DNA of 64,000 nt, taken from IMG/VR virus record IMGVR_UViG_3300045988_126669, positions 33,217 to 97,216 of that record. The stretch is one strand, 5' to 3'. Under the pieces are notes generated by a model that saw nothing but the letters and a program-made list of their open reading frames with translations, was not told the DNA's origin and did not search any database. The stretch's first letter is position 1. Each line of letters opens with the position of its first letter. Origin of the DNA: a virus. A program made the position numbers and the translations under genes. This document shows, one piece after another, positions 36,411-50,658 of this stretch.

Positions 36411-36570
36411 TTACCTATTGACAATTTCAAAACTTTGTGGTATAATCGGCCGGCGCGCGAACGGACCTGGCGCGCCGAGTTTTTGTCAATAGGCAGATTC
36501 AACAAATTTTTGGGGCAAATTTTTGTGCAAAGTGTCAATAGACAGAATCCCGAATCGGTGCTATACTATA
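36411..36570 (+). promoter_or_regulatory. module copy 1: IR-flanked promoter (TTGACA 36418 / TATAAT 36441), GC hairpin 36447-36479 + U-run, TTTTTGTGCAAAG box, then promoter P2 (TAGACA 36539 / TATACT 36562)
   Basis: The 13-bp inverted repeat tgcctattgacaa / ttgtcaataggca brackets the first promoter and the hairpin. Confidence 0.6.
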
Positions 36571-36619
36571 ATCACAGTAAGGGAAGGAAAACCTACCAAA
36601 CCGGAAAGGGATTTACAAC

Positions 36620-36928
36620 ATGATTAACATTCGTTCTATTCTCAAACTCGCTGAAAATGACGGCCTGACTCTCAAATATGGCAAGAAAGTCAACTACAAG
36701 TCCGGCTGGCAGGTCGCTACCAACGGCGTTGAATGTAAGACCGCCCGCGAAGCTATTAACGCGGTTAAGGACTTCGGCGGAAACTGCGGTGTATGGCTTG
36801 CGAACGGCATCTATTATGTTGACAAGTCCAAGAGAGTGCAGACCAAAAAGCAGGCGCTTGAAATTGGCAAGGCGTGCAATCAAATCAGCGTATATGGCTG
36901 GGCGCGCGGGAATCTGGCCTACTGCTAA
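36620..36928 (+). CDS. hypothetical protein (102 aa)
   Basis: Driven by the module-1 promoter P2. TAA. Confidence 0.55.
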   Translation: MINIRSILKLAENDGLTLKYGKKVNYKSGWQVATNGVECKTAREAINAVKDFGGNCGVWLANGIYYVDKSKRVQTKKQALEIGKACNQISVYGWARGNLAYC

Positions 36929-37005
36929 AAAAAATTGCATATAGGGCTTGACAAAACAAGCCCTATATGCTACAATAAAAACATCAAAGGAAAGGGAGAA
37001 ACACC

Positions 37006-37278
37006 ATGGAAATTAAATATGCTTATGAAATGACGCGCAAAGCCGAAGAAGTCCGCAAAGAAATCCAAGCTAAAAATAATGCCCTCGCGCGTGCGTTTAT
37101 CGGAGACCACATCATGCCGGAAATTGAGCGTGTGGCAGGAACGGGAGAAACACTTTACGAGTGTTCTCTTGCTTCATTAAATGACAAGGGCGTCAGGCAG
37201 GCTTGCAAAGATATTATGCAGAATTATGGCTATAAAGCCAGCTACATTGACAACGTTCTTTCGATCTATTGGGGATAA
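37006..37278 (+). CDS. hypothetical protein (90 aa)
   Basis: Own promoter GGGCTTGACAAAAC..TACAAT. RBS AAAGGGAG. Confidence 0.55.
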   Translation: MEIKYAYEMTRKAEEVRKEIQAKNNALARAFIGDHIMPEIERVAGTGETLYECSLASLNDKGVRQACKDIMQNYGYKASYIDNVLSIYWG

Positions 37279-37379
37279 ATAAAGAGGGAAAATTTTTCCC
37301 TCTTTTTTCCAAAAAGCCCTTGACAAATTCAGAAACAGATGCTATAATAACAATACAATACAGGAAAGGGAATGTTATT

Positions 37380-37742
37380 ATGATGAACTTCGAAACTTAT
37401 AGTCTTTTGAGAAAGTGCCTTGATAATGGTACTTTCACCGGAATGGACGTGTTTCAGGCGGAACGGGCTTGCCAGAAATTCGAGGAAGCCCAGGAAGCGC
37501 GGAAACTGAAACAGGAAATCCGCAACACCATGATGAAAAACATGATGCTCGATGTTCTCTCAAAGGCGGAAAAGCCCCTGTGCCCTACGGAAATCCAGTT
37601 TATTCTTTACCGTGAGACCGGCAAAGAATATCCTTGCGCCACCGTTGCATGGTATTGCGGTCATCTTTGCTGGATTGACAGAAAGTTGACCTACACCAAA
37701 AAGGGAAGCCGGAGCTACTACTCCATTAGAAAAGAAAATTGA
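37380..37742 (+). CDS. hypothetical protein (120 aa)
   Basis: Own promoter CCCTTGACAAATTC..TATAAT. RBS GGAAAGGG. Confidence 0.5.
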   Translation: MMNFETYSLLRKCLDNGTFTGMDVFQAERACQKFEEAQEARKLKQEIRNTMMKNMMLDVLSKAEKPLCPTEIQFILYRETGKEYPCATVAWYCGHLCWIDRKLTYTKKGSRSYYSIRKEN

Positions 37743-37819
37743 AAAAAATAAGAAAAAGGGCTTGACAAAAAGCCCTTTTTCTGCTATACTTAATGTATCA
37801 AAGGAAAGGGGAATAAAAC

Positions 37820-37891
37820 AATGGAATGTCCTTATTGCGATGGAAAGTGCGGAACACACGCTCAATGCGTTAAATGCGGAAAGGGGAAATA
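37820..37891 (+). CDS. 23-aa zinc-ribbon micro-protein (CxxC..CxxC)
   Basis: Own promoter GGGCTTGACAAAAAG..TATACT. RBS AGGAAAGGGG. Confidence 0.4.
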
Positions 37892-37894
37892 AAA

Positions 37895-38251
37895 ATGGGA
37901 ACAGAATTCTTAATTGTTGGCGGAATTTTTAGTGCAGTCCTTGCGCTGTTTGTTTGCCTTGTCTGTTGGTGCAACATGGACAAGTCTCACCCAATAGTCA
38001 GACTGTTAGTTGGTCTTCTCATTTCGTGCGCTCTTGGCTACGGTATGACGGGCGCAATAGTCGCGGAACACAATGCCGATAAAAAGGCATGGAATGACGG
38101 CTATTGCTCCATTTGCGGAAATGAAATGGAATTTGTAAATGCTTCTCACGGTCGGCATGGAACAGTTTTTTACTATTGGTATTGCGATGAGTGCGGACAT
38201 ACGTTAGAGCTAACCTCTAACTTTGCAAAGGGGGAAACAAATAATGAATGA
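37895..38251 (+). CDS. membrane protein with a C-terminal zinc ribbon (118 aa)
   Basis: RBS AAAGGGGA. N-terminal TM helices. Confidence 0.5.
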   Translation: MGTEFLIVGGIFSAVLALFVCLVCWCNMDKSHPIVRLLVGLLISCALGYGMTGAIVAEHNADKKAWNDGYCSICGNEMEFVNASHGRHGTVFYYWYCDECGHTLELTSNFAKGETNNE

Positions 38252-38450
38252 AAAACCTATCCCGCAGGCTTTGAGAGAACAGGCAGACGCCCTTGAAAAG
38301 TTGGCTCAAAGAATTGCAAAAGAAAGTCAGAAATTTCCAGACGCGGAAGACTACAAAGACGGCGGAGAACTTGCGAACGCCTTGTTTGCGATTCAGTCCA
38401 AACTCCGCTATGAATACTTCTGGATTGCGGAAGCCATGTGGGACGTATAA
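38244..38450 (+). CDS. hypothetical protein (68 aa)
   Basis: RBS AAGGGGGAAACAAATAATG and terminator 38455-38490. Confidence 0.5.
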   Translation: MNEKPIPQALREQADALEKLAQRIAKESQKFPDAEDYKDGGELANALFAIQSKLRYEYFWIAEAMWDV

Positions 38451-38535
38451 TTTTCAGGCGAGATTTAATTATCTCGCCTGAAATTTTTTTTTCAAAAAAC
38501 TATTGACAAACTCGCCCCGTTGTGGTATTATAATC

Positions 38536-38604
38536 ATGTCAAGAGGAAATGGTAAGCCTCTTGAAGTAGTAAACAAATTTTTCATACTATGGTTTGCGCG
38601 GTAG
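38536..38604 (+). CDS. leaderless micro-ORF MSRGNGKPLEVVNKFFILWFAR (could instead be an sRNA)
   Basis: Promoter TTGACA 38503; the ATG lies 4-5 nt after the -10 box. Shares the ATGTCA(A/G)GAGG start with the units at 45383, 47924, 48052 and 48158. Confidence 0.3.
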   Translation: MSRGNGKPLEVVNKFFILWFAR

Positions 38605-38636
38605 CCGATAATTACCGCGCCCTTTCTATTTCATTT

Positions 38637-38820
38637 TTGTTAAAATTTTAACAATGGTTGTTCGGCCGGGCGCGCACGGCCCACGCGCCCGGAATTTCCA
38701 TTATATCACAGGGCCAGCAATTTGTCAAGCAAAAAGTTGCAAAAATTTGCACAAATTATTTTTCCCAATTTTGTGCGATCCGTCAATAGACAAATCTCTA
38801 AGGGTGTGTTATATTATAAT
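38637..38820 (+). promoter_or_regulatory. module copy 2: palindromic TTGTTAAAATTTTAACAA, GC hairpin 38666-38692 + AATTTCCATTATATCAC, AAATTTGCACAAATT box, then P2 (TAGACA 38787)
   Basis: Conserved blocks shared with the copies at 42.9, 45.2 and 47.7 kb. Confidence 0.55.
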
Positions 38821-38854
38821 TGTTCCAAGGGGACAGAAAGATGAGGTAAATAAA

Positions 38855-39061
38855 ATGACTAATTACAACATTCACTCTTTTATCAAGACCCAGCTTCTCT
38901 ATGCCGAGCAGATGCCCAGCGACGCCGAGCTTTTCAAGCACAATGCTTATGGTGCAGTTCAGTGGGAGTTATATCGCACGAATGACTCGACTCTTGAAAC
39001 ACAGTGGGAAATCATATATGCCCCCAAATTCGACGCTATCATCAGAAATTATCATTTCTGA
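38855..39061 (+). CDS. hypothetical protein (68 aa)
   Basis: Driven by module-2 P2. RBS GATGAGG. Confidence 0.5.
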   Translation: MTNYNIHSFIKTQLLYAEQMPSDAELFKHNAYGAVQWELYRTNDSTLETQWEIIYAPKFDAIIRNYHF

Positions 39062-39130
39062 TAAAAAGGGCTTGACAAAAGCCCTTTCGCATGATATAAT
39101 ACATATACAATCAAGAAAGAGGTAAGTAAA

Positions 39131-39280
39131 ATGGATATTATTCGAGTTTACAACAGACACACTAATGAAGTCCTTGAAAAGGTTTTCATGGACTCTGCGG
39201 ACGCAGATAACTTTGAAACTATTCTTGACTTCCTTGAAGCGGAATATGAGCGCTACCACGATGGGGAACAATTGTATTAA
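39131..39280 (+). CDS. hypothetical 49-aa protein
   Basis: Own promoter GGGCTTGACAAAAGCC..TATAAT. RBS AAGAGG. Confidence 0.45.
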   Translation: MDIIRVYNRHTNEVLEKVFMDSADADNFETILDFLEAEYERYHDGEQLY

Positions 39281-39352
39281 AGGGGCTTGACAAGCCCCTC
39301 CCTATATGATATAATACAATCAATCCAAGAGAAAAAGAAAGAGGTAAGACAA

Positions 39353-39691
39353 ATGCTTATCAAAATGTCAAAACACGCCACGCAAGACCGCATTGACCGC
39401 CTGCTCTTCATCTACGACAATGTAGGAATCGGCGAACCGTATATCGACAGCGTTGAGGACGATGTTCTCTACACTATCACTACAACTGGTATCCTTCTTA
39501 TTCGTAGTGCTAAGGACGGCACACTCATTACCGCCTATATCGCGGATATTGATAAAATCACCGCGATATGGAGAAACAAGCACGGCGAGCGCCCCATGCC
39601 TGACAACCTTTACAAGCGTGTTCTCGCAAATGCGTTCTTCGATAGAATGTGGAATAAACAGGAAAAGGAGAAAAAGAAAAATGTTCGGTAA
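39353..39691 (+). CDS. hypothetical protein (112 aa)
   Basis: Own promoter GGGCTTGACAAGCC..TATAAT. Confidence 0.5.
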   Translation: MLIKMSKHATQDRIDRLLFIYDNVGIGEPYIDSVEDDVLYTITTTGILLIRSAKDGTLITAYIADIDKITAIWRNKHGERPMPDNLYKRVLANAFFDRMWNKQEKEKKKNVR

Positions 39692-40037
39692 GAAGAAAGA
39701 AAAGAAATTCAATCCCTATGAGAATCACACAGACGAAATGCTTTATAAGGTTTGGGAAGAGCGCGACCGCCTTTATGAAAAGACAAGGCAAGTCATTACG
39801 CGCGTAGGGGTGATTAACCTTTATCCTGACTGCCCCGACCGCAAGAAAGCAGTCTCCGACGCCGAAGAAGCGAAGCACGCCTTAATTGTGGCTATTGGAG
39901 CATACGACACCGCGCGCATGGAGTATAATAACTACATCAAAAAATATGCGGAAAAGTTCGATAGTCCCAAAGAGGAATGGACTACCACAAGCCATGAAAT
40001 CATTGAATGGGCTTACAAATACTATTATAAAGGGTGA
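39681..40037 (+). CDS. hypothetical protein (118 aa)
   Basis: RBS GGAAAAGGAG. Overlaps the previous gene by 11 nt. Confidence 0.5.
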   Translation: MFGKKKEKKFNPYENHTDEMLYKVWEERDRLYEKTRQVITRVGVINLYPDCPDRKKAVSDAEEAKHALIVAIGAYDTARMEYNNYIKKYAEKFDSPKEEWTTTSHEIIEWAYKYYYKG

Positions 40038-40042
40038 ACGAA

Positions 40043-40279
40043 ATGAAAATTACTATTAAGAATGATAATAAGCTCGTCCCGTTTGAAGATGTTGCCGAAG
40101 GTATGGTTTTCAAAGACCCTACCACCGAAGATTATTACATCAAAACTGCCTCTGTGGTCGATGAAGATACCGGCGCCGAGGACTGGAATTGTCTCCGCTT
40201 GGACAATTATACTTTCGATTGCTTTGCTCCAAAGTATATGGTTCGGCCTATTCACGGCGCGGAACTGATTATCCCTTGA
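40043..40279 (+). CDS. hypothetical protein (78 aa)
   Basis: RBS AAAGGGTGA. Confidence 0.5.
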   Translation: MKITIKNDNKLVPFEDVAEGMVFKDPTTEDYYIKTASVVDEDTGAEDWNCLRLDNYTFDCFAPKYMVRPIHGAELIIP

Positions 40280-40391
40280 CAAAACCGAACTTTTGTTCGT
40301 GTTTTTCTCCCCCTTTCCTATGGCTTTGGCGGTTGTGCCTGAAACAACCGCCACCCTTTCCAAAAAATAAATTGAATGGAGATAAAAAAAA

Positions 40392-40566
40392 ATGGAAAAT
40401 AAAGAAAAGCTTAGTGAGGTTGTCGTAAAAGTTTGCGCGATGGCGCGCTATGGTATTCAGAAGCATTTTTCCCCTGATGAAATGGACGAAATGCTTGAAC
40501 GCGTTTCACTTCTTGAAGATAAGCTCGTTCCCATTCTCATCGACCTCGAAGCCGTAGAAAACTAAA
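40392..40566 (+). CDS. hypothetical 57-aa protein
   Basis: RBS AATGGAGATAAAAAAAAATG. Terminator 40570-40602. Confidence 0.4.
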
Positions 40567-40610
40567 TGAAAAATCACCCAATTTGGGTGATTTTTTTTTG
40601 TTTAATTTTA

Positions 40611-40765
40611 CTATTGACAAAGTTCCTTAAATGTGATAAAATTGTCGGCGCGCGGACGACTGTGGCGCGCCGAGTTTTTTGTCAAGAGGTAAGTTCAACA
40701 AATTTTCGCACGAATTTTTGTGTAAAATGCCAATAGACAAAAATCCTATAATGTGGTAAGATGTA
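40611..40765 (+). promoter_or_regulatory. module copy 3: promoter (TTGACA 40615 / TAAAAT 40638), GC hairpin 40647-40673 + U6, TTTTCGCACGAATTTTT box, then P2 (TAGACA 40735)
   Basis: Same architecture as copy 1. Confidence 0.55.
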
Positions 40766-40792
40766 TACAACAAATAAAGGGGGAATAAAATA

Positions 40793-41137
40793 ATGGTGGC
40801 ATGGTATTGGTTGATTCTCGCGTTTTGTGTGGGCATTGCGTTCGCTACAATCACCGATGAGTGGTGCGAATGGGAAAACACCTTGACTGATGTTCTCACA
40901 TGGATTGCTCTGATTATCGGCTTTGTTCCTTTGTCTTTCTATTGCATATTCCTTAAACTGACGATTTTCCACCCCACTACGCAAGAGAAGTTTGAGGAAG
41001 TCAAAAAGATTAGTGAAAAAACTTGTAAAATCTATCGAGTATGCGGTAATGTGTATTTTTGGATTGACCCCAAAGCAACGAAAATTTATAACAAGGTCTT
41101 TTTTGTCCGGGTAAAGGAGAATGACGACAATGTATGA
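40793..41137 (+). CDS. membrane protein (114 aa)
   Basis: Driven by module-3 P2. RBS AAAGGGGGAA. Confidence 0.55.
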   Translation: MVAWYWLILAFCVGIAFATITDEWCEWENTLTDVLTWIALIIGFVPLSFYCIFLKLTIFHPTTQEKFEEVKKISEKTCKIYRVCGNVYFWIDPKATKIYNKVFFVRVKENDDNV

Positions 41138-41288
41138 GGAAGTTAACGTCTTGCGCTTGATTGACTGGTTGCGCGCTTGGACGGAAACCTTTAATGACTG
41201 CGCTTGTTGTCCTTTGTCTGACCAATGCGACCGCGGAAGTATTAGCTACGAATGTGCTGATGACCTATTAGAAAAATTAAAAGAGTAA
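41130..41288 (+). CDS. Cys-rich 52-aa protein
   Basis: RBS AAAGGAGAATGACGACAATG. Overlaps the upstream stop. Confidence 0.4.
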   Translation: MYEEVNVLRLIDWLRAWTETFNDCACCPLSDQCDRGSISYECADDLLEKLKE

Positions 41289-41361
41289 ATTAAAAACTCT
41301 CTATTGACATTTCTATTATATTATGATATTATTATAATAGAAAAAGGAAAGGGTGATAATA

Positions 41362-41601
41362 ATGAAAAAGAAATATACTATTTGGTATGACGCTCCCGAA
41401 GTCAAAGAAGTGGTGGTTTATAATGAAGCTGACGCTATTAAGGCTTTTGACAATGCCACTCACGCATACAATGAAGAAAATAATCTTCGCGGTAAAGATG
41501 CTTACATTGACTTTACACACCGCGATGATAAAAGAATGAGCTTTGAGGAATACGTCGATATTACCGACTGTATTTACTGCGATATTGAGGTGGTAGAATG
41601 A
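41362..41601 (+). CDS. hypothetical protein (79 aa)
   Basis: Promoter TTGACATTTC..TATTATAAT. RBS AAAGGAAAGGGTGA. Confidence 0.5.
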   Translation: MKKKYTIWYDAPEVKEVVVYNEADAIKAFDNATHAYNEENNLRGKDAYIDFTHRDDKRMSFEEYVDITDCIYCDIEVVE

Positions 41602-42071
41602 ATACAATTCTTCTATTCGCGCTTTGCACGGCGGTAAATGTGATTCTGTCAACTATCAAAAGCATTTTGACTGTCAATGGCGGAAAAGTCAGCGCGTCTC
41701 TTATCAATGCTATCACTTATGGTTTTTATTCCTATGTGATTGTACTTACTTCTGCGGACGGTATGCCTATCTGGTTGAAAATGGCTATTACTGCCGTTTG
41801 TAATTTCGTGGGCGTTTATTTTGTCAAATGGATTGAAGAGAAAGCCCGCAAAGACAAGCTATGGAAAGTCGAGCTGACTGTCCCGACAAGATACACCAAC
41901 ACTATTGATTTTGATTTGCATGACGTTCCGCACTCTTATATTGAATTGAGCGATAAACATACGCTTTTCAATTTTTATTGTGCGACCCAAAAGGAAAGCG
42001 CAAAAGTCAAGGCTATTGCCAATCAATACGAAGCAAAATATTTTGTCGCGGAAAGCAAAAATCTTGAATAA
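41598..42071 (+). CDS. membrane protein (157 aa, N-terminal TM helices)
   Basis: ATGA overlap with the upstream gene. Confidence 0.55.
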   Translation: MNTILLFALCTAVNVILSTIKSILTVNGGKVSASLINAITYGFYSYVIVLTSADGMPIWLKMAITAVCNFVGVYFVKWIEEKARKDKLWKVELTVPTRYTNTIDFDLHDVPHSYIELSDKHTLFNFYCATQKESAKVKAIANQYEAKYFVAESKNLE

Positions 42072-42135
42072 AGGGCTTGACAAAAACCTTTTGTTCTGCT
42101 ATACTTAATGTATCAAGTGAAAGGGGAAAATTAAA

Positions 42136-42588
42136 ATGAAAGCTACTGGTATTGTTCGCAGAATTGATGACCTTGGACGTGTGGTCATTCCGAAAGAAAT
42201 TCGCCGGACTTTGAAGATTCGCGAGGGCGACCCGCTCGAAATCTTCATTGAAGACAATGACTGCGTTTGCTTCAAGAGGTATTCGGTGCTTGGCTCTTTG
42301 ACCGAAGAAGCTCTGCGAGTTGCTATCACAATGGCATCAAATTCCGGTCTGCGTCCCATCGCAATCTATGACACTACCGTGAAACTGCGGGGCATGGAAA
42401 ACTTTCCGCCTTATGTTTCGACCCAGTGGGATTTTAAAAGAAAGCCGTTTGTTTTCAATAACACTTATGGCGTTTACCCAATTTGTGCGGACGGCGACCT
42501 TGTGGGTTATGCGGTTTGCGACCAGCAGGACATGGGTTGCGAAATGGACATGATTGTCCGCTACCTCAGCATTGTGTCTGAACGTTAA
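42136..42588 (+). CDS. AbrB/SpoVT-family transition-state regulator homolog (150 aa)
   Basis: The N-terminus GIVRRIDDLGRVVIPKEIRRTLKIREGDPLEIF closely matches the AbrB swapped-hairpin DNA-binding domain. Own promoter GGGCTTGACAAAAACC..TATACT. Confidence 0.7.
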   Translation: MKATGIVRRIDDLGRVVIPKEIRRTLKIREGDPLEIFIEDNDCVCFKRYSVLGSLTEEALRVAITMASNSGLRPIAIYDTTVKLRGMENFPPYVSTQWDFKRKPFVFNNTYGVYPICADGDLVGYAVCDQQDMGCEMDMIVRYLSIVSER

Positions 42589-42664
42589 AAAAATAGCACA
42601 AGGGACTTGACAAAACAAGTCCCTTGTGCTACAATAAAAGCATCAAAGGAAAGAGGTAAATAAA

Positions 42665-42844
42665 ATGGAAATTGAAAAGACATTTCGGGTTGATTACAGC
42701 GGTAAAAATCCTTGGGACCAGTATTATGATAATCGGGTTCGTTTTTACTCCGAAGAAGAAGCTGATGCTTTTATCCAAAAGTTGATGGAAGATGAAAATA
42801 TCTATCAGATTTTCAAAACCATTACTACCAGCTATAACAGATAA
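42665..42844 (+). CDS. hypothetical 59-aa protein
   Basis: Own promoter GGGACTTGACAAAACAAG..TACAAT. RBS AAAGAGG. Terminator 42851-42880. Confidence 0.45.
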   Translation: MEIEKTFRVDYSGKNPWDQYYDNRVRFYSEEEADAFIQKLMEDENIYQIFKTITTSYNR

Positions 42845-42885
42845 AATTTGAGGTGAAAATTCACCTCATTTTTTTTAGTTATTTT

Positions 42886-43071
42886 GCCTATTGACAAAAA
42901 TCCAATAGTGAGATAAAATGGCCGGCCGTTTGCGCCTGCCACGGCCGGAATTTCCATTATACCACCATCTCAGCAATTTGTCAATAGGAAATTTAGCCAA
43001 AAGTCCAACTAATTATTTTCCCGAATTTGGGTATTTTACCAATAGACAAGAATGTAATAATCTGCTATACT
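42886..43071 (+). promoter_or_regulatory. module copy 4: IR-flanked promoter (TTGACA 42891 / TAAAAT 42914), GC hairpin 42920-42948 + AATTTCCATTATACC, then P2 (TAGACA 43043 / TATACT 43066)
   Basis: cctattgacaa...ttgtcaatagg inverted repeat as in copy 1. Confidence 0.55.
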
Positions 43072-43102
43072 ATGGATACAGTAAAGAAAGGGGATACAAA
43101 CA

Positions 43103-43366
43103 ATGTATTACACTCACGATTTTTCTACTGAAAAGTTCTCTACTCGCGGAGAATGTGTAGAAGAACTTCTTTCTTCTATGGATTCTCTTGATATTTCAGA
43201 GTTTATCGCCCATCGCGTTTCTCTTGCTGATATTATTGACGAACGCATGGCCCGCGACCCCGAGGACTTTTACGACTGGTTAGATAGAGAAATTCAGATT
43301 GCGACTAATACCTATCTTGAATGGCATATCAACGAACACTACGGTCATATAGAGGATTTAGAATGA
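43103..43366 (+). CDS. hypothetical protein (87 aa)
   Basis: Driven by module-4 P2. RBS AAAGGGGA. Confidence 0.55.
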   Translation: MYYTHDFSTEKFSTRGECVEELLSSMDSLDISEFIAHRVSLADIIDERMARDPEDFYDWLDREIQIATNTYLEWHINEHYGHIEDLE

Positions 43367-43506
43367 TTATTTTAATCGGCATTTTCGGCCTCGTTTTTGG
43401 CTTTATTTTTGCCTATTCCTGTGAAAGTCTCGGGTGGGACTCTTTCAATATCGTCTACGCTATTCCTGTGCTGATTTTGCTTAATTTCTTATCTTCCGTG
43501 TATTGA
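43363..43506 (+). CDS. 47-aa two-TM membrane peptide
   Basis: ATGA overlap. Hydrophobic. Confidence 0.4.
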   Translation: MIILIGIFGLVFGFIFAYSCESLGWDSFNIVYAIPVLILLNFLSSVY

Positions 43507-43597
43507 GAAAGACCGCAAAAATTTTGAAAAAAACACTTGACAAGCAAATCCAATAGTGGTATAATACAAGCATAGTAAAGGAAAGAGGTAAACACCT

Positions 43598-43891
43598 ATG
43601 AGTAAACCGAAAACTTATGAGTATGAGGGAAGAACCTTTGAGGTCAAGGCATACAGCGGAGATGAGTATGGGGCTTTCTTATTCATCTATGTCTATGAAG
43701 TTATCCGCCCTACCCGCAAATTCTTTGGTCGAACTCGGTTCTTTTGCGAGGACTTTGTTCTTCTTGACCAATATCTTTCTATTGATGACGCAGTAAAAGA
43801 TGTCATCGCACGGGGTCTTTGGCAGGAAGAATATAAAAAGTTTGCCGAAGATAAATGGAAAGAATGGACAAATAAAGTGAGAAATTGCTAA
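43598..43891 (+). CDS. hypothetical protein (97 aa)
   Basis: Own promoter ACTTGACAAGC..TATAAT. Confidence 0.55.
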   Translation: MSKPKTYEYEGRTFEVKAYSGDEYGAFLFIYVYEVIRPTRKFFGRTRFFCEDFVLLDQYLSIDDAVKDVIARGLWQEEYKKFAEDKWKEWTNKVRNC

Positions 43892-43959
43892 AATTTCTCT
43901 TGACAACCGCGCAGACGTATGGTATAATACAGATACAGTAAAGGAAAGGGGTAATACCT

Positions 43960-44460
43960 ATGAAAATCACTTACATCAAGTCCCACGTTGTGGCTACTCG
44001 ACGTTCCATCAACTTTGACATGGACGGCACTATCGCTGACCTCTACGGCGTCAAGGATTGGCTTGCACTTCTCCGTTCGGAAAATCCTAAGCCCTATCGA
44101 ACTGCTGTTCCCATGTGCAATATGGCTGAACTGAATGAGGTTTGCGAACTTCTCCGCGCCGAGGGCTGGGAAATCAACATCATCACTTGGCTTTCCAAAG
44201 ATTCGAGCGAGGAATACAAAAACCTCGTGCGTGAAGCAAAGCGCGCGTGGCTTGAAGAACAGGGCTTCCACTATGACCACTTCCACGGCGTCCAGTATGG
44301 CGCGACTAAGGCCGACAGCGTGCGCGACCGCTATGACGTGTCCATCTTGGTTGACGATAATGAAAAGGTTCGGAATGGTTGGCACTTGGGCGAAACCATT
44401 GACCCGACCGCAGTAAACATTATCGAAAAACTTTCGGAACTTTTGGAGAAAAGGGCTTGA
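43960..44460 (+). CDS. HAD-superfamily 5'(3')-deoxyribonucleotidase-like phosphatase (166 aa)
   Basis: Motif I FDMDGTIAD, and a later ILVDDN motif. Own promoter CTCTTGACAACC..TATAAT. Confidence 0.55.
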   Translation: MKITYIKSHVVATRRSINFDMDGTIADLYGVKDWLALLRSENPKPYRTAVPMCNMAELNEVCELLRAEGWEINIITWLSKDSSEEYKNLVREAKRAWLEEQGFHYDHFHGVQYGATKADSVRDRYDVSILVDDNEKVRNGWHLGETIDPTAVNIIEKLSELLEKRA

Positions 44461-44515
44461 CAAAGCCCTACTCCAATGGTATAATAAATACATCAAATGA
44501 AAAGGAGAAAATAAA

Positions 44516-44722
44516 ATGGTTATTCTTTTAATTCTGCTGTCTCTCGCAGTTTCGTTCCTGCTTACCTCTGGTCTGGTTTGGCTTCTCTGCTGGCTTCTTC
44601 CCGCCCTCGGTATCACCGCAATCGGCACTTTCGTCATCGTGTTCTCGTGGAAGCTGGCACTCGCAATTTGGATTATTCTCGTGCTTTTGCAGTCCATCTT
44701 CTCGGTCGGTTCAAAGAGGTGA
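44516..44722 (+). CDS. 68-aa membrane protein
   Basis: Own promoter. RBS AAAGGAGAAAA. Confidence 0.5.
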   Translation: MVILLILLSLAVSFLLTSGLVWLLCWLLPALGITAIGTFVIVFSWKLALAIWIILVLLQSIFSVGSKR

Positions 44723-44727
44723 TAAAA

Positions 44728-44871
44728 ATGATGCCTTATTTTTGGGTTGATATTGGAATCATCGGAAAAGTAGTTGAAAAGATTGATGACGACCTTTTCA
44801 TCTATGAAACCGTTATCACCAAAGAACGCGCGACCGTGACCGCAAAATGGGTCAAGGAACATCTGCTTTAA
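44728..44871 (+). CDS. 47-aa hypothetical protein
   Basis: RBS AGAGGTGATAAAAATG. Confidence 0.4.
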   Translation: MMPYFWVDIGIIGKVVEKIDDDLFIYETVITKERATVTAKWVKEHLL

Positions 44872-44887
44872 GAGAGGAGAAATAAAA

Positions 44888-45145
44888 ATGAAAGTAAATT
44901 TTGGCACTAAGGGTCAGCTCCAAATTATCAACATTCTCAGCGGTGGCACGTTCACCACTCTGCGCTCCAACGGTAGCGGTATGGGAATGTATCTCAAAAT
45001 TGACAGCAACAACAACACGCCGTTTGTCCGGTCGAGAGGTTCGCAGTATTGCTACGCGGTGAATCTTGAAACGGGTCAGGTTCGCGAGTTTTCGCGCGAC
45101 AAGATGGTGACGCCGGTCAAGACCGAGGTCAATGTGATTGGCTAA
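44888..45145 (+). CDS. hypothetical protein (85 aa)
   Basis: RBS AGAGGAGAAATAAAAATG. Terminator 45150-45181. Confidence 0.55.
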   Translation: MKVNFGTKGQLQIINILSGGTFTTLRSNGSGMGMYLKIDSNNNTPFVRSRGSQYCYAVNLETGQVREFSRDKMVTPVKTEVNVIG

Positions 45146-45190
45146 AAGAAAATCTCCCCAAAAATGGGGAGATTTTTTTTGTTTACTTTG

Positions 45191-45377
45191 ACTATTGACA
45201 AAATCATCTGAATGTGATATAATGGGCCGGCCGTTTCCGCGCGCTACGGCCGGAATTTACCATTATACACCCCGCCAGCATTTTTGTCAAGAGAAATTTT
45301 GCACAAATTTCAATTTTATTTTTTCCCGTTATTTAGCTATTTTACCAATAGACAAATCAGTATCAATCTGCTATACT
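45191..45377 (+). promoter_or_regulatory. module copy 5: promoter (TTGACA 45195 / TATAAT 45218), GC hairpin 45224-45252 + AATTTACCATTATAC, TTTTGCACAAATTTC box, then P2 (TAGACA 45349 / TATACT 45372)
   Basis: Conserved blocks. Confidence 0.55.
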
Positions 45378-45382
45378 ACATA

Positions 45383-45496
45383 ATGTCAGGAGGAAAGAGT
45401 AAGATCTTCGGAAAGGCAGTTCCCTTGACCATTATACCAAAATCCGACGGAATGTTCCAAGCGTGGCGTGCCGAACAAACTTTCAAAAAAGTTTGA
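45383..45496 (+). CDS. leaderless micro-ORF MSGGKSKIFGKAVPLTIIPKSDGMFQAWRAEQTFKKV (37 aa)
   Basis: The ATG is 5 nt after the P2 -10 box and there is no SD. ATGTCAGGAGG family. Confidence 0.35.
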   Translation: MSGGKSKIFGKAVPLTIIPKSDGMFQAWRAEQTFKKV

Positions 45497-45564
45497 AAAA
45501 CCCCTTGACAAACCGTTCTACGTAGGGTATAATGAATACATCAAATGAGAGAGGTAAAAACAAG

Positions 45565-45594
45565 ATGACTTCTAATGCTCGCCCACCGCCTTAA
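45565..45594 (+). CDS. leader micro-ORF MTSNARPPP*
   Basis: Promoter CCCTTGACAAACC..TATAAT. RBS GAGAGG. Poly-Pro then stop. Confidence 0.35.
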   Translation: MTSNARPPP

Positions 45595-45655
45595 AAACTA
45601 ATGGTTTATTGAATTGGATTGGATTAAGATTATAGATAAAGGTAGGTATAAACAA

Positions 45656-45688
45656 GATGTATAGTAATAAACCTCGCGACCGCCCCTA
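45656..45688 (+). CDS. leader micro-ORF MYSNKPRDRP*
   Basis: RBS AAAGGTAGG. Ends Arg-Pro-stop (TnaC-like). Confidence 0.35.
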
Positions 45689-45787
45689 AAAAAAATTGCA
45701 AAAACTATTGACAGCCTGCTCCGCCTATGATATAATAACTACATTAAAGACAAGGGCAGTCTTAAAAACCAGAAAGGAATTGATACT

Positions 45788-46168
45788 ATGGCTACTTCTA
45801 CTTCTACCACTAAGAAGCTCACCAAGCGCGACCGTTTTGAGGCTCTGCTCAAAATGAGCGAGGTTCAGGCAAATCCTGATATGGTGGCGTTCATCGAGCA
45901 TGAGATTGAACTGCTCGCCAAGAAGAACGCGGGCGACAAGAAGCCCACGGCCAAGCAGATGGAGAATGACGCTGTGAAGCAGGTCATTCTGGACGAGATG
46001 ACCGCGAACCCCGACAAGCTGTATACCGTAACCGACCTCATCAAGACCGTTCCCGAACTCGCGGAGTATACCAATCAGCGCGTTTCCGCTCTTCTGCGTC
46101 AGATGATTGACGCCGGTTCGGTTGTCAAGACGGTTGACAAGCGCAAGTCCTACTTCTCCCTCGCGTAA
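45788..46168 (+). CDS. hypothetical protein (126 aa), paralog of 48467..48844
   Basis: About 65% identity to the 48467 gene. Both carry the conserved GAAAGGAATTGATACTATG leader. Confidence 0.6.
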   Translation: MATSTSTTKKLTKRDRFEALLKMSEVQANPDMVAFIEHEIELLAKKNAGDKKPTAKQMENDAVKQVILDEMTANPDKLYTVTDLIKTVPELAEYTNQRVSALLRQMIDAGSVVKTVDKRKSYFSLA

Positions 46169-46310
46169 AGGAAAAAGGGCAGGGGATAAAAAAATCCCCT
46201 GCCCTGCAAAAAAAACTGTTGACAAACCAATAGCAAAGTGATATACTATGTATAGAGATTGAGAGAACGATGGTAAACCTCAATCTACTTTTCCAATAGG
46301 AGACGATAAA

Positions 46311-47087
46311 ATGGGTATTGATAGGCGCAAAAACTACGGCATTATGCTGGACACGGAAACCGCAAACACCATTCAGGACGGCGATAAGCTGGATATGTCA
46401 AATGTACTTCCCTACGACTTCGGCTGGGCGGTCATTGATTCCAAGGGAAATGTTTATGAAACTCATTCTTTTGTGAATCGCGACATTTTCTGCTACGAGC
46501 GCGACCTCATGCGGTCTGCCTACTACGCCGACAAGATTCCTCGCTACATTGAGGATATTCAAAACGGCACTCGCATTATGGCTGACCTTTACGAAATTCG
46601 TCTTGCGTTCTGCGAATGTGTCGAGCGCTACAACTGCTCTTTTGTGTGCGCTCATAATATGCGGTTCGACCTTAACGCCTGCAACAACGCGCAAAGATGG
46701 GACACGAAAAGCAAGTATCGCTATTTCTTCCCCTACGACCTCGAAATTTGGGACACGTTGAAAATGGCGCGTCAGGTTATCGGTAAAATGCCTACTTACC
46801 GCGACTATTGCGAAAAGAACGGCTACAAGACCAAGAACGGACAGCTCCGTTTCACCGCAGAAATTCTCTATCGCTTTATCAGCGGTGAGGACAACTTTGA
46901 TGAATCCCACACGGGATTAGAAGATGTTCTCATTGAAGTTGAGATTCTGCGCTACTGCGTCCGACAGCACAAGGAAATGGACAAGTCCCTTTTCAAAACT
47001 CCCACGGTGAAGCGTCCCAAGCCTACCGAGTTTCAGCGTGCGCTCATGCGAAACATTAAGGAAAATCCTATGATAAACATGAGCTAA
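46311..47087 (+). CDS. DEDDh-family 3'-5' exonuclease (DnaQ/RNase T-like), 258 aa
   Basis: Exo I MLDTETAN, Exo II HNMRFDLN, Exo III SHTGLEDVLIEVEIL. The 5'UTR carries the conserved hairpin gattgagagaacgatggtaaacctcaatc. Confidence 0.7.
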   Translation: MGIDRRKNYGIMLDTETANTIQDGDKLDMSNVLPYDFGWAVIDSKGNVYETHSFVNRDIFCYERDLMRSAYYADKIPRYIEDIQNGTRIMADLYEIRLAFCECVERYNCSFVCAHNMRFDLNACNNAQRWDTKSKYRYFFPYDLEIWDTLKMARQVIGKMPTYRDYCEKNGYKTKNGQLRFTAEILYRFISGEDNFDESHTGLEDVLIEVEILRYCVRQHKEMDKSLFKTPTVKRPKPTEFQRALMRNIKENPMINMS

Positions 47088-47166
47088 AAAAAAATAGGGG
47101 AATAGGGCTTGACAAGTCCTATTCCCTATGGTATAATCAATGTATCAAATGAAAGAGGTGTTTCAC

Positions 47167-47445
47167 ATGAACGCTAAACAAGTCCTTTTTGTAGTCCCTG
47201 ATGACAATGACCCTCACATGGGCATTTTAATCGACCATGACTATATTATCTGCGCCGAGTGCGGTGGCGTCTTTGAAGCTGATGAAGTTTTCATTATTCA
47301 GACCTACGACTCTTGGGTAAATTTTGAAGATGAAATTGCGGACGAGCTTGACCTGCTGACTGCAAAAGACATTGGCAAGGAGCTGGATAGCAAGGAAAAG
47401 TTCGGCTGGGACGCGTGGAAAGAAGCCATTAAGGGGGAGTTTTGA
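47167..47445 (+). CDS. hypothetical protein (92 aa, CxxC)
   Basis: Own promoter GGGCTTGACAAGTCC..TATAAT. RBS AAGAGG. Confidence 0.5.
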   Translation: MNAKQVLFVVPDDNDPHMGILIDHDYIICAECGGVFEADEVFIIQTYDSWVNFEDEIADELDLLTAKDIGKELDSKEKFGWDAWKEAIKGEF

Positions 47446-47447
47446 AA

Positions 47448-47687
47448 ATGGATTTAGATTTTAATTACATGACTGACGAGGAACTGGACGAACTCATTCT
47501 CCAAATACAAGAAGCCAGAAAAGCCCGCGCAGAAAGCCGAAAGATTGACCTTTGGAACAATGTTCGGCGGTCGGTTCAGAATTACATCATGGAATGTGGA
47601 ATGATTGAACTCTTTACCGAGGACTACAATTCCACGCTGGACGCTGATTCTTTCAGGATTCCCGGCGAGATTAACCTGCTGGACTAA
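47448..47687 (+). CDS. hypothetical protein (79 aa)
   Basis: RBS AAGGGGGAG. Terminator 47695-47725. Confidence 0.5.
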   Translation: MDLDFNYMTDEELDELILQIQEARKARAESRKIDLWNNVRRSVQNYIMECGMIELFTEDYNSTLDADSFRIPGEINLLD

Positions 47688-47730
47688 AATAAAAAACTAC
47701 CCAAAATTGGGTAGTTTTTTTTGTCTATTT

Positions 47731-47919
47731 TGTCTATTGACAAACGCGGATTTTTGTGATAAAATGGGCGGACCGCCAGCGTACGCAGCGGTCCGAATTT
47801 TCCATTATATCACGCCCCGCCAATTTTGTCAAGAGAAAAATTGCACAAAAGTGAAGAAAATTTTTTCCCGTAATTTGGTTATTTTGTCAATTGCAATCTA
47901 CGGGCAATCTGCTATAATA
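47731..47919 (+). promoter_or_regulatory. module copy 6: promoter (TTGACA 47736 / TAAAAT 47759), GC hairpin 47765-47794 + AATTTTCCATTATATCAC, AAATTGCACAAAAG box, then P2 (TTGCAA 47891 / TATAAT 47914)
   Basis: Conserved blocks. Confidence 0.55.
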
Positions 47920-47923
47920 GATA

Positions 47924-48022
47924 ATGTCAGGAGGGAACAGTGAATTGCCGAACGGCTTCGCTGATGGGTGTGATAACTCGGTAACTGACCCGTTTTCAAA
48001 GAAATTTGAAATTCCCTCTTGA
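47924..48022 (+). CDS. leaderless micro-ORF MSGGNSELPNGFADGCDNSVTDPFSKKFEIPS
   Basis: The ATG is 5 nt after the -10 box. Confidence 0.3.
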   Translation: MSGGNSELPNGFADGCDNSVTDPFSKKFEIPS

Positions 48023-48051
48023 CAAGTAGTGCGAAAAGTGCTACAATAGAT

Positions 48052-48126
48052 AATGTCAAGAGGACAGAGCCGTTGTACGCTCAATTGTGAGATAAGAACT
48101 CTGAAAAAAATTTATAAAACCTCTTG
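48052..48126 (+). CDS. leaderless micro-ORF MSRGQSRCTLNCEIRTLKKIYKTS
   Basis: TTGACA 48018-17-TACAAT 48041, with the ATG 5 nt after the -10 box. Confidence 0.3.
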
Positions 48127-48157
48127 ACAAACCCCAGCGAGTGTGCTACAATAGAAA

Positions 48158-48277
48158 ATGTCGAGAGGGAGTAACCCAAGAAATCCGAGGGCGCGCGACT
48201 TTGAGAAAGTATAGGAAGTAAACATAATACACCACGTTGTAAAGCCAAACGTTGAACGCGAAAGTGAGTTTGATTGA
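48158..48277 (+). CDS. leaderless micro-ORF MSRGSNPRNPRARDFEKV(TAG)EVNIIHHVVKPNVERESEFD
   Basis: TTGACA 48124-17-TACAAT 48147, with the ATG 5 nt after the -10 box. Has an in-frame TAG. Confidence 0.25.
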
Positions 48278-48466
48278 ACCAACTATCCTTGACGCGGTTT
48301 TCCGCTGACAAATAGATTGAATCAACAAACAATAAATTATCCGTCAGGTCGGGGTAGTAATTCGTGTGAAAAGTTTGCGAAACCTCTTGACAAACACTCC
48401 AAAGTGTGGTATACTCAATAATATCAAAAGGGTAGCGACCTACCGCCAAAGAAAGGAATTGATACT

Positions 48467-48844
48467 ATGTCTACTTCTACTGTTAAGAAGCTCACCAAGC
48501 GCGACCGTTTCGAGGCTCTGCTCAAACTGTCCGAGGTTCAGGCTGACCCTGCTATGGTTGAGTTTATCAACCACGAAATCGACCTGCTGTCCCGCAAGAA
48601 CGCCGGTGACAAGAAGCCGACCGCGAATCAGATTGCCAACGACGGCTACAAGGACATTATCTTTGCCGAGCTGTCCGCGAATCCTGACAAGCTGTATACC
48701 GTGACCGAACTCATCAAGAACGTGGACGGTCTGGGCGACCTCACCAATCAGCGCGTTTCCGCTCTTCTGCGTCAGATGATTGAAGCGAACGGCGTCGAGA
48801 AGATTGTGGACAAGCGCAAGTCCTACTTCCGTCTCGCCCACTGA
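48467..48844 (+). CDS. hypothetical protein (125 aa), paralog of 45788..46168
   Basis: Promoter CTCTTGACAAACAC..TATACT. Terminator 48850-48890. Confidence 0.6.
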   Translation: MSTSTVKKLTKRDRFEALLKLSEVQADPAMVEFINHEIDLLSRKNAGDKKPTANQIANDGYKDIIFAELSANPDKLYTVTELIKNVDGLGDLTNQRVSALLRQMIEANGVEKIVDKRKSYFRLAH

Positions 48845-48944
48845 TTCAGGGGGAGCGCCTGAAAAAAATCAGGCGCTCCCAAAAATTTCTCTTGACATTT
48901 GCTGACGGCGGTGTTATAATCATACTTGAAAGGGGGCAAAAGAA

Positions 48945-49352
48945 ATGCCTAAAATGAGTAAAAAAGACTTTCAGGCAAAGATTGATAATCTGATGAAAAA
49001 GTTAGATTGTACTGCCGAGGAAGCAAAAGAAATTCTCATGGACGATGATGACATTGACCATGGAATCGCCAAGGACTTTGACCTGTCCGCGGAAAAGCTC
49101 AAAGAAGCTAACAAGTATTCTAAAACCGGAACACGCAAAGCGCCGACCGCTTATAAGTTTGAGAAGCGACAGCGCAAGGAAAACCCCACAAAACGCTCGA
49201 TTATTGCTGAACTTGCGACTTTTTTGCGAGAAAACAGCGAAAATGCGTGCGAAAATGTGGAAATCACGAACATTGAGCGCATGATTGCGTTCCATGTGGG
49301 CGAAAATGACTATGAATTGACCCTGATTCAGAAGCGAAAGCCCAAAAATTGA
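48945..49352 (+). CDS. hypothetical protein (135 aa)
   Basis: Promoter TCTCTTGACATTTG..TATAAT. RBS AAAGGGGG. Terminator 49355-49398. Confidence 0.55.
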   Translation: MPKMSKKDFQAKIDNLMKKLDCTAEEAKEILMDDDDIDHGIAKDFDLSAEKLKEANKYSKTGTRKAPTAYKFEKRQRKENPTKRSIIAELATFLRENSENACENVEITNIERMIAFHVGENDYELTLIQKRKPKN

Positions 49353-49475
49353 CAAAAAAGGGTGAAAAACCGCTGAAAAATGCGGTTTTTCACCCAAAAA
49401 CAAGTCAAAAAATGCAAAAAATAATGGTTGAGAGAACGATGGTAAACCTCAATCAATAGAGAGGATTTTGTGCCG

Positions 49476-49886
49476 ATGGAAGAAATTACTATTAAGCTAC
49501 GCCGATTTAAGGACGGCAGACCGCCCGTTTCAATGGAGTTTATGCCTAATTGTGGCGAGAATCTGAAAGACGTTCAAGCGGTCTACTTTTTCAAGTTTTA
49601 CAACAACAACAAACTTGAATTTAACAAGGTAGGCACTTCCGCAAAAGACGTTGTAGGGCGTTTGCGTGATGAAATTGGCGAGTATGCAAAAAAGTATGCT
49701 ATCACGCGCGTTGAAATTCATCGAATCCGTTCTTGCGGGGATTATCCCGCCGAGGGCGCGGAAAGCGCGTTGCGTGCGGAACTGATTAGACGCTATCCCA
49801 AAGCGTTCCGCAAGAATGACCGCTTTTTTAATGTGGACATTAACCCCACGGTTTTCGATGAAATTGTAAACGCATTTCTTGCATAA
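49476..49886 (+). CDS. hypothetical protein (136 aa)
   Basis: The 5'UTR has the conserved hairpin gttgagagaacgatggtaaacctcaatc (identical core to the one at 46258). Terminator 49895-49930. Confidence 0.5.
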   Translation: MEEITIKLRRFKDGRPPVSMEFMPNCGENLKDVQAVYFFKFYNNNKLEFNKVGTSAKDVVGRLRDEIGEYAKKYAITRVEIHRIRSCGDYPAEGAESALRAELIRRYPKAFRKNDRFFNVDINPTVFDEIVNAFLA

Positions 49887-49937
49887 ATATTCAATCAGCA
49901 GGTTGACTAAAACCTGCTGATTTTTTTTGTGCATTTT

Positions 49938-50010
49938 GCCTATTGACACCGATCGGAAAATGTGGTATAATGGCCGGGCCGTCGCGGGACGTGCCGGCCC
50001 GATTTCCCGA
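49938..50010 (+). promoter_or_regulatory. module copy 7 (first half only): promoter (TTGACA 49943 / TATAAT 49966) + GC hairpin 49972-50001, flanked by CCGATCGG repeats
   Basis: Same promoter-hairpin arrangement. The downstream part diverges (CATATG inverted repeats). Confidence 0.45.
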
Positions 50011-50280
50011 TCGGTATACCCATATGCAAAATTTCTCATACTTCTAGCACCTCTCCATATGGCCCAAAAAAATCCCGAAAATTGACTTTTTATAAAAAAT
50101 ATGTTATAATGATAAAAAAAGACTTTTTTAAGCCCGCGTAGGATCATATGCCTTTATGATTAATTAAAAACTGCTTCGCCCTTACATTGTTTCACGCGTA
50201 TGTTTTCATTTAAAAAAATCTTGACATTTTTAAAAAAAAAGTATATAATATATATAGAAAATAAGAAAAGAGGTATTCAT

Positions 50281-50658
50281 ATGGATATGAATGATATTAT
50301 TGCTCGTCTGAAAAATGGTGAGGACGCTCAGGCTATTGCGGACGAAATGGCTAAGTCTCTGAACGATGCGGTTAAGCAGGTGGAGAAGGAAACCAAGCAG
50401 GCCGATCGGAAGACCGCGCTCGCGCAAGAAATCGCCGATCGGATTAACGAGTATGCCGCTCTTAATGGCTACAAGGATTCCGCGTTGACCGCGTCCGATG
50501 TGGAGAACATCTTTGCTGAGGTTTACGGTCTTATGACCGGGGTTAACGATCTTCTTGACGTGCTTTTTCCCAAGAGCACCCCGGTAAAGGTTAAGAAGGT
50601 CAAGAAAACCGATGATGATGTAATTGCCGAATTTTTGAACACTTTCATTAATAAGTGA
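50281..50658 (+). CDS. hypothetical protein (125 aa)
   Basis: Promoter TTGACA 50221-17-TATAAT 50244. RBS AAGAGG. Terminator 50735-50765. Confidence 0.55.
   Translation: MDMNDIIARLKNGEDAQAIADEMAKSLNDAVKQVEKETKQADRKTALAQEIADRINEYAALNGYKDSALTASDVENIFAEVYGLMTGVNDLLDVLFPKSTPVKVKKVKKTDDDVIAEFLNTFINK

Follow-up and report, generated by a model that had tools for sequence, protein, structure and literature searches.

Five short transcription units beginning with a common 11-nucleotide (nt) motif, ATGTCARGAGG, are found on the plus strand of a 64,000-nt stretch of viral DNA, positions 33,217 to 97,216 of the IMG/VR record IMGVR_UViG_3300045988_126669, which was analysed as a whole and is called the window here. 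Four exact copies of the motif are present on this strand (38536, 45383, 47924 and 48053), against 0.03 predicted from shuffled sequence, and a fifth copy, ATGTCGAGAGG at 48158, differs from it at one base. An earlier note on this DNA had taken the five units for leaderless micro-open reading frames (micro-ORFs), all with the exact motif. Four of its five positions are correct, and the remaining unit, placed at 48052, starts at 48053. The shared motif is real, apart from the one mismatch in unit 5, and the units are separate, with their own promoters and a conserved start; their translation as leaderless micro-ORFs did not hold, and that interpretation was mostly wrong. With a probability of about one half, ATGTCARGAGG(G) is the conserved start of an early, non-coding-type leader in TAG-recoded phages, not a coding start, and closes structured RNA cassettes.

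As had been reported, each ATG lies 4–5 nt past a −10 box of the sigma-70 type, 4 nt in unit 1 and 5 nt in units 2 to 5. Unit 1 is preceded by a TTGACA-17-TATTAT promoter with a TG extension (38503–38531), and its motif copy, ATGTCAAGAGG, occupies 38536–38546. The promoters of unit 2 (45349–45377, TAGACA-17-TATACT) and unit 3 (47891–47918, TTGCAA-16-TATAAT) are each the second promoter of a module repeated along this region; the earlier note had ascribed two of the five units to that promoter. The last three units stand in tandem, and a TTGACA-17-TACAAT promoter had been ascribed to each of them; it is present before unit 4 (48019–48047) and unit 5 (48124–48152) and is replaced by the form given above before unit 3. 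The −35 region of the unit 4 promoter is at the same time the 3' arm of the predicted closing helix of unit 3. The ORFs that begin at the five ATGs are 22, 37, 32, 24 and 18 codons long in units 1 to 5, and their first residues are MSRG or MSGG. They exist as described, but are probably not made as peptides, since neither the frame nor the start codon is conserved.

In Escherichia coli, 8, 55, 29 and 7% of transcription starts fall 6, 7, 8 and 9 base pairs (bp) after the −10 box, +1 is preferably a purine and −1 a pyrimidine, and purine-rich discriminators move the start upstream (PMC5730371). The A of the motif is position 6 after the −10 box (5 in unit 1), and the G, which is preceded by T, is position 8 (7 in unit 1). 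Judged by position and neighbouring bases, the G of ATG would agree no less well than the A with the start-site usage of E. coli and with the Y(−1)R(+1) rule. As both the A and the G are possible starts, the leaderless premise is not secure.

A tract resembling a Shine-Dalgarno (SD) sequence, AGGAGG or AAGAGG(G), occupies +6 to +12 of the motif, and no ATG, GTG or TTG is conserved 5–10 nt downstream of it. Small ORFs 3' of the tract, starting with GTG in unit 3, TTG in unit 4 and ATG in unit 1, were rejected because they are unconserved or wrongly spaced. TGTCAA was likewise rejected as part of an antisense promoter, the minus strand, on direct reading, having no −10 box at the correct spacing. 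The standard leaders of the early region consist of the −10 box, 5–6 nt, A(C/T)ATCAAAGGAAAGGGG, a further 7–9 nt and the ATG; some of them are AATGTATCAAAGG, which is similar to AATGTCAAGAGG. In its sequence the motif looks as if the start of a standard leader and its SD tract had been compressed together. Some standard leaders read TAATGTATCAAAGG, and an ATG can therefore stand at the place equivalent to that in the motif without being a start codon.

The units in related phages

Beyond the window, the motif is found in IMG/VR contigs and in the published TAG-recoded gut phage Phass-1 (OQ749652.1). Two pattern scans of IMG/VR yielded 24 and more than 118 loci, mostly on phage contigs of 85–196 kb from many samples, with 159 promoter-preceded instances of the motif, 143 of them unique. 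Short units without an ORF of at least 50 codons make up 81 of the 143 and fall into 42 sequence clusters. Another 47 are messenger RNAs (mRNAs) with their own SD and start codon 16–154 nt downstream, 9 are leaders of transfer RNA (tRNA) operons with tRNA-Glu 58 nt after the motif, and 6 are of other kinds. In the window and the first 24 loci, the motif follows 33 promoters of non-mRNA type and 3 of mRNA type. The R position is A in 45 copies and G in 43, and the flanks show a conservation that the search pattern does not impose (−3 A, −2 T, +12 G and +14 A).

Phass-1 has the same early-region architecture and the same kind of units. These start with ATGTCAAGAGGG and GTGTCAGGAGGG after consensus promoters, end at (C)CTCTTGACA, and sit in an unannotated gap or beneath a short 'hypothetical protein' coding sequence on the opposite strand; the abstract and the host-prediction section of PMC10607447 do not mention them. 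In loci L140 (OQ749652.1, 100001–135976) and L139, Phass-1 also has a second promoter class, the spacer and start of which (TTGACATAAAAAAATTTTTATGGTATAAT ATATATAGAAAGTGAGRGA) hardly vary. Its members lie outside the early region, where genes and tRNAs are under their control, and may be a middle or late class.

The reading frames of the units change among relatives. Unit 2 has homologues in eight loci with frame-breaking indels, and +1 and +4 indels within the ORF alter the C-terminal half of the peptide. Bodies of 31, 36 and 34 nt precede a conserved 3' hairpin in the unit 3 family, so that the conserved part falls in different frames. Among the 22 unique sequences of the unit 5 family, indels of −2 and +1 occur; across the unit families, indels of +1, +4, −2 and +5 are seen. 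Codon 19 of unit 5 is TAG, CAG, AAG or GAG among its relatives, its variable sites are distributed 5/3/5 over codon positions 1/2/3, with no third-position bias, and 8 of its 13 changes are nonsynonymous. The start codon changes as well: the orthologue of unit 1 in locus L137 is identical save for TTG in place of ATG, and GTGTC and ATATC variants are present in the motif family. No homologue of unit 4 was found among the related loci, and its body is an orphan. What different families have in common is limited to the first four 'codons', the pattern expected of a nucleic-acid signal. At the head of tRNA-Glu operons and of mRNAs the same motif precedes other starts; its ATG is in frame with the real start codon and open to it in only 11 of the 47 mRNAs. 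A conserved AUG and purifying selection on the frame, the marks by which leaderless micro-ORFs would be recognized, do not appear in these alignments, and none of the coding tests fits functional peptides.

Hairpins are conserved in the families of units 1, 3 and 5. Unit 1 is predicted, in both the minimum free energy (MFE) and the centroid structure, to form a 5' hairpin of 8 bp at 38539–38564 (TCAAGAGG, a 10-nt loop, CCTCTTGA), which has the SD-like tract in its 5' arm and is kept in five orthologues. A terminator-like GC hairpin (38596–38620) with a T-rich tail follows, the two spanning 38596–38640, and would make unit 1 a discrete RNA of about 100 nt. With a promoter and a terminator-like hairpin of its own, unit 1 has the layout of an independent small RNA gene, whereas units 2 to 5 have the promoters alone. 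Unit 2, a 'type A' RNA of 128 nt (45383–45510, motif 45383–45393), is predicted to pair its nt 2–11, with one mismatch, with CCCCTTGACA at 45501–45510, which covers the −35 box of the next promoter. Unit 3 (101 nt, 47924–48024, motif 47924–47934) is predicted to have a 13-bp closing helix, 47925–47937 with 48012–48024, around two internal hairpins (z = −5.4). The hairpins of its family persist despite differing sequences through compensatory changes, and in one homologue the closing pair 13:95 changes from A-U to G-C. Unit 4 (77 nt, 48053–48129, motif 48053–48063) has a predicted closing helix of 10 bp, 48054–48063 with 48120–48129 (z = −4.2). Its promoter is orthologous to that of a 155-nt 'type C' RNA in seven related loci (L001, L005, L008, L014, L019, L023 and L024), from which it follows that the slots of the array swap bodies while the promoter and the closing sequences stay.

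Unit 5 is a 'type B' RNA of 235 nt (48158–48392), with the variant motif at 48158–48168 and a predicted closing helix of 48159–48168 with 48383–48392. Type B has 22 unique homologues in 24 loci. A hairpin within the putative ORF (48186–48203, CGAGG...CTTTG) shows compensatory changes in relatives: both sides have changed in four of its five pairs, 98.6% of the alignment cells are paired, and none of 500 shuffles matches this. The full-length alignment has more long-range pairs with compensatory changes, and one subfamily has a separate closing helix of 15 bp. Type B RNAs are modular, as seen in the window (48158–48392) and in loci L018 (8442), L021 (132) and L051 (5051). A 5' frame of ~65 nt and a 3' frame of ~25–65 nt surround an insert of 0, ~50 or ~145–190 nt, and the long insert contains a variable hairpin between the direct repeats GATTGAACCAAC ... 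GATTGAATCAAC. In the relatives examined, the long forms lie directly upstream of the promoter of the conserved early gene, and the copy of this gene corresponding to 48467 always comes after such a form.

In the predicted folds of the nine unique tRNA leaders, the motif is always part of a 5' hairpin, with two different registers among them. A 5' helix is thus predicted in the five units of the window and in the tRNA leaders, its position relative to the 5' end being that which the predicted start site gives. No unit matches Rfam 15 at E <= 1 over 32–51 kb, and at the gathering threshold 11 related loci give tRNAs alone. Within the window, the search for antisense targets of the unit bodies found A/T-rich chance matches only.

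Complementarity to the following promoter

Positions +2 to +11 of the motif, TGTCAAGAGG, are the reverse complement of CCTCTTGACA, that is, of a −35 box plus a CCTC extension. The MFE folds of units 2 to 5 pair nt 2–11 with CCUCUUGACA at the 3' end, whereas the partner in unit 1 is local, at 38557–38564, about 10 nt downstream. When the complementarity was counted beyond the −35 hexamer with one vote per cluster, at least nine contiguous pairs in fixed register were found in 25 of 43 short-unit clusters, compared with 49 of 409 control promoters (12%; Fisher p = 3e-11). Over all loci, a CCTC-like tetramer lies 5' of the −35 box at 34 of 52 promoters preceded by a unit and at 150 of 926 others, and it tracks the upstream unit, not the downstream motif. 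In the window it is absent at 38503, 45349 and 47891 and present at 48019, 48124 and 48387, and the promoter at 45505 has the one-mismatch form CCCC.

The variable R positions of the motif face the UU of CUUGAC, and A and G can therefore both pair. A table of partner bases for these positions was not used, being circular, since the helices had been preselected for pairing. A partner that is no promoter can vary along with the motif, as in the pairs GTCGGGAGGG/CCCTCCCGA, GTCAGGAGGG/CCCTCCTGAC and TCAAGGGG/CCCCTTGA.

Function and alternative explanations

In the favoured explanation, the motif would unite the region in which transcription starts, at the A or G of 'ATG', with the purine-rich SD-like tract, and this tract would pair with a pyrimidine-rich complement, CCUCUUGAC(A). 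With the complement ~10 nt away, unit 1 would form a 5'-terminal hairpin; in units 2 to 5 it is at the far end, over the next −35 box, so that each would fold into a closed cassette. The five units would then be non-coding RNA segments in tandem promoter-cassette arrays upstream of two paralogous early genes. No plus-strand terminator was found between units 2 to 5 and the downstream genes, and these units are therefore probably also nested leaders of the two genes; they may be nested leaders, processed RNAs, or both. The fallback of the earlier note, a small RNA (sRNA) motif that is SD-like or related to the anti-SD sequence, comes close to this explanation. The likeliest function would be protection of the 5' end from 5'-dependent decay of the RppH and RNase J type, the definition of processing sites, or both, and protection would be akin to that given by the 5' stem-loop and SD-like stabilisers of Bacillus. 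For BsRppH, two or more unpaired 5' nucleotides are needed (PMC3997798), and the predicted helix of the units starts 1–3 nt from the predicted 5' end.

The predicted 5'-terminal helix is also the feature that the units would share with known stabilisers. The ompA and papA leaders of E. coli and the aprE leader of B. subtilis carry 5'-terminal stem-loops, which block 5'-end-dependent decay. Unlike in these leaders, the 5' arm of the units is one conserved sequence across many unrelated transcripts, and in the arrays its partner is 60–230 nt away, over the next −35 box; stabilisation is a proposal in their case. The early transcripts of T7 and SP82 are punctuated by RNase III, typically at hairpins of ~20 bp, and the SP82 stabiliser also concerns early phage RNA. 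Like them, the units belong to a dense early region with strong host-type promoters and have predicted inter-unit helices that could define processed ends. They differ in having predicted closing stems of 10–14 bp around whole cassettes, and their processing is hypothetical. The motif is a variation on known 5' leader and stabiliser elements, and marks structured RNAs that have remained unannotated.

Several points weigh against the favoured explanation. The related loci were gathered with the motif as bait, and its conservation is partly by construction (ascertainment bias). The start site, the 3' ends and the promoter activity are all predictions from sequence. Pooled over the fixed-register arms of 57 units, the closing helix shows no significant covariation, since there is next to no variation in either arm; the search pattern fixed the 5' one and the −35 box the 3' one. 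In mRNA-type transcripts the local motif hairpin does not surpass in strength those of control leaders (p = 0.58); pairing is therefore no general rule, and a claim that the motif always forms a 5' hairpin was dropped after this test. The 5' arm is conserved beyond the needs of pairing, which suggests that something else also reads this sequence specifically, be it the ribosome, RNA polymerase or a protein. Finally, a paired SD-like tract is not free for ribosomes, so that the two protective mechanisms partly conflict. The helix is well supported for the array units, unit 1 and the tRNA leaders, and is not supported as a universal rule.

The conservation of the motif beyond pairing would also be expected of a DNA operator, in which TGTCAAGAGG, as an inverted copy of the −35 region CCTCTTGACA, is bound by a phage or host protein that switches the early promoters on or off. 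Every unit promoter lies between the hexamers TTGACA and TGTCAA, which are inverted relative to each other, and a protein encoded just downstream, with a model that looks winged-helix-like, is a candidate binder. The CCTC complement, however, belongs to the promoter after the unit and not to the one that drives it, so that no palindrome is centred on a single promoter. Where no promoter is nearby, the complement lies inside the transcript at a variable distance (unit 1, the tRNA leaders, V016 and V123), and A/G variation opposite T, neutral in RNA, would create mismatches in a palindrome at the DNA level. The winged-helix resemblance is weak, and binding is hypothetical. An operator is unlikely.

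The SD-like tract could act in the exposed state, GGAGG or AGAGG binding the 3' end of 16S ribosomal RNA and either protecting the RNA, as in STAB-SD and SP82, or titrating 30S subunits as a sponge. The tract at +6 to +12, without a consistent start codon 5–10 nt downstream, the strong consensus promoters and the presence of several copies all agree with this. A strong SD without a start codon stabilises RNAs of Bacilli, as cited in PMC3997798 from Agaisse & Lereclus 1996 and Hue et al. 1995. The cryIIIA STAB-SD and the SP82 polypurine stabiliser, as far as they are outlined there, have such a 5' SD-like tract in Firmicute or phage RNA, and the units likewise have one with no start codon at SD spacing. 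Unlike these stabilisers, which, in the same outline, work via 30S on an accessible SD, the units have their tract predicted to be paired, in five of five units of the window by MFE and centroid folds. About half of the copies carry the weaker AAGAGG, and ribosome binding is hypothetical. This alternative is accordingly doubtful in our estimate.

It is possible, at low odds, that the units are an undescribed class of phage sRNAs, self-closing cassettes with their own promoters that are swapped between the arrays of related phages. The closing helix would then consist of a universal 5' leader and, paired to it, the next −35 region copied into RNA, and the RNAs could serve in trans, for instance as decoys for RNA polymerase or a sigma factor, for ribosomes, or for host defences that target RNA. 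Alternatively, through the helix, read-through transcription could be coupled to how active the next promoter is.

That the units are decayed duplicates, promoter, 5' untranslated region (UTR) and SD cassettes that have lost their genes, with a functionless motif shortened from the standard leader, is quite improbable. The likeness of the motif to the standard leaders beginning with A(C/T)ATCAAAGGAAAGGGG, and to those with AATGTATCAAAGG, would suit it, as would the differing make-up of the arrays between relatives and the orphan body of unit 4. Against this, more than 100 contigs, which come from many samples, have the exact motif before bodies unrelated to each other. The type A, B and D bodies are conserved, their changes preserving structure, and there is specific enrichment of the complementary CCTC extension at the far end.

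Leaderless mRNAs, of which lambda cI from PRM is an example, share with the units an ATG at or beside the predicted start and the lack of an upstream SD, but in the units the start codon and frame are unconserved and tRNA precursors share the start. Synthesis of MS(R/G)G peptides of 18–37 residues by 70S ribosomes on transcripts starting at the A of ATG is very improbable: the short distance to the −10 box, a purine-rich discriminator (AGATA) that favours upstream starts (PMC5730371), the first 18 codons of unit 5 mostly kept in closer relatives, several of which have a 39-codon ORF, and the slightly longer ORFs of the short units (mean 23.6 codons, against 17.3 in shuffled bodies) are outweighed by the frame-shifting indels in the families of units 2, 3 and 5, the changing start codon and codon 19, the sharing of no more than four 'codons' between families, the presence of the motif at the head of tRNA operons and mRNAs, and the compensatory changes in hairpins inside the 'ORFs'.

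The early region and the phage lineage

One ORF of the window, at 16884–17867, matches a family of virion structural proteins. All 71 of its matches are to Firmicutes phages or to Phass-1 (47% identity), which is predicted to infect Clostridia according to the host-prediction section of PMC10607447. The host is probably a Firmicute, as judged from these matches. Together with the likeness to Phass-1, they make the region of the motif most likely the early region of a recoded Firmicutes phage. Composition and genetic code are sharply split within this one genome. From 1 to 31.5 kb (1–31500), on the minus strand and with a GC content of 0.28–0.30, long ORFs, such as a frame of 2776 codons, exist only with TAG read-through, and from 32 to 50.5 kb (32000–50500), on the plus strand and at a GC content of 0.40–0.45, the standard code is used. 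The latter part contains about 40 near-consensus TTGACA-17-(TG)TATAAT sites, each driving a small gene. ARAGORN found no tRNA or transfer-messenger RNA (tmRNA) in the window, and blastn in 'distant' mode found no match to 44–50 kb among GenBank phages.

The two arrays lead to paralogous early genes with 77% nt identity. After unit 5 (48387–48844, plus strand), a promoter at 48387–48415 is followed by a 5' UTR that begins with the non-ATG ATATCAAAAGGG (48421), by its own SD and by a gene (48467–48844) for a protein of 125 amino acids. After unit 2 (45505–46168, plus strand), a promoter at 45505–45533 precedes two SD-led micro-ORFs, and a second one at 45708–45736 precedes the gene at 45788–46168. 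The ~125-residue proteins have 897 metagenomic homologues and no Pfam domain. Pfam and PHROGs gave nothing informative for the neighbouring early proteins, and a sequence search of PDB with the 125-residue protein gave no match. The AlphaFold model has a mean predicted local distance difference test (pLDDT) score of 85. Its C-terminal half weakly resembles winged-helix regulators (MarR, ArsR/SmtB, Fur and Z-alpha), with E values of 2e-3 to 2e-2 and a template modelling (TM) score of about 0.45.

The two micro-ORFs upstream of the second gene, MTSNARPPP* (45565–45594) and MYSNKPRDRP* (45657–45689), have good SDs and a common promoter at 45505. They are kept in five related loci, with a synonymous change in an Arg codon; a deletion in L024 fuses the pair, and L007 is without the stop codon. 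Each terminates with Pro-stop, in the first case after PPP, and may therefore be a stalling or leader peptide ahead of the paralogous early gene.

The module that supplies the promoters of units 2 and 3 is repeated every 2.2–2.5 kb (36367–36590, 38650–38816, 40563–40763, 42865–43072, 45144–45378, 47686–47920 and 49917–50000, the extent of the last being approximate) and is shared by Phass-1. Most copies consist of a terminator and a consensus promoter, followed at once by a GC-rich hairpin of 8–10 bp, the sequence of which differs from copy to copy; the copy at 38650 is without its own first promoter. After the hairpin comes either a T-run or a perfect promoter on the minus strand, in convergent orientation (38728, 42984, 45290 and 47832), and then the second plus-strand promoter. 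By their layout, the transcripts of the module would be tiny sense and antisense hairpin RNAs. Many ordinary early promoters have their −35 box in a perfect hairpin (e.g. GCATATAGGGCTTGACAAAACAAGCCCTATATGC) with an A-tract before it, at 36937–36970, 37751–37782, 42593–42632, 34612–34636 and other places. Read on the minus strand, such a site looks like an intrinsic terminator, and it may block antisense transcription or fold read-through RNA.

The non-coding transcription units that the motif marks belong to a lineage of TAG-recoded gut phages, Phass-1 among them, that is widespread but has been little studied. In the present annotation these units are blank or covered by spurious ORFs, and with the present analysis five candidate micro-proteins are dropped from consideration. 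A consensus promoter followed by ATGTCARGAGG provides a handle for finding early promoters, the starts of tRNA operons and at least three families of structured RNA, types A, B and D, which have no Rfam model. If the leader turns out to stabilise RNA or to signal its processing, Firmicutes would have in it a portable RNA-stability element, and it would give a view of how a phage organises its early transcriptome.

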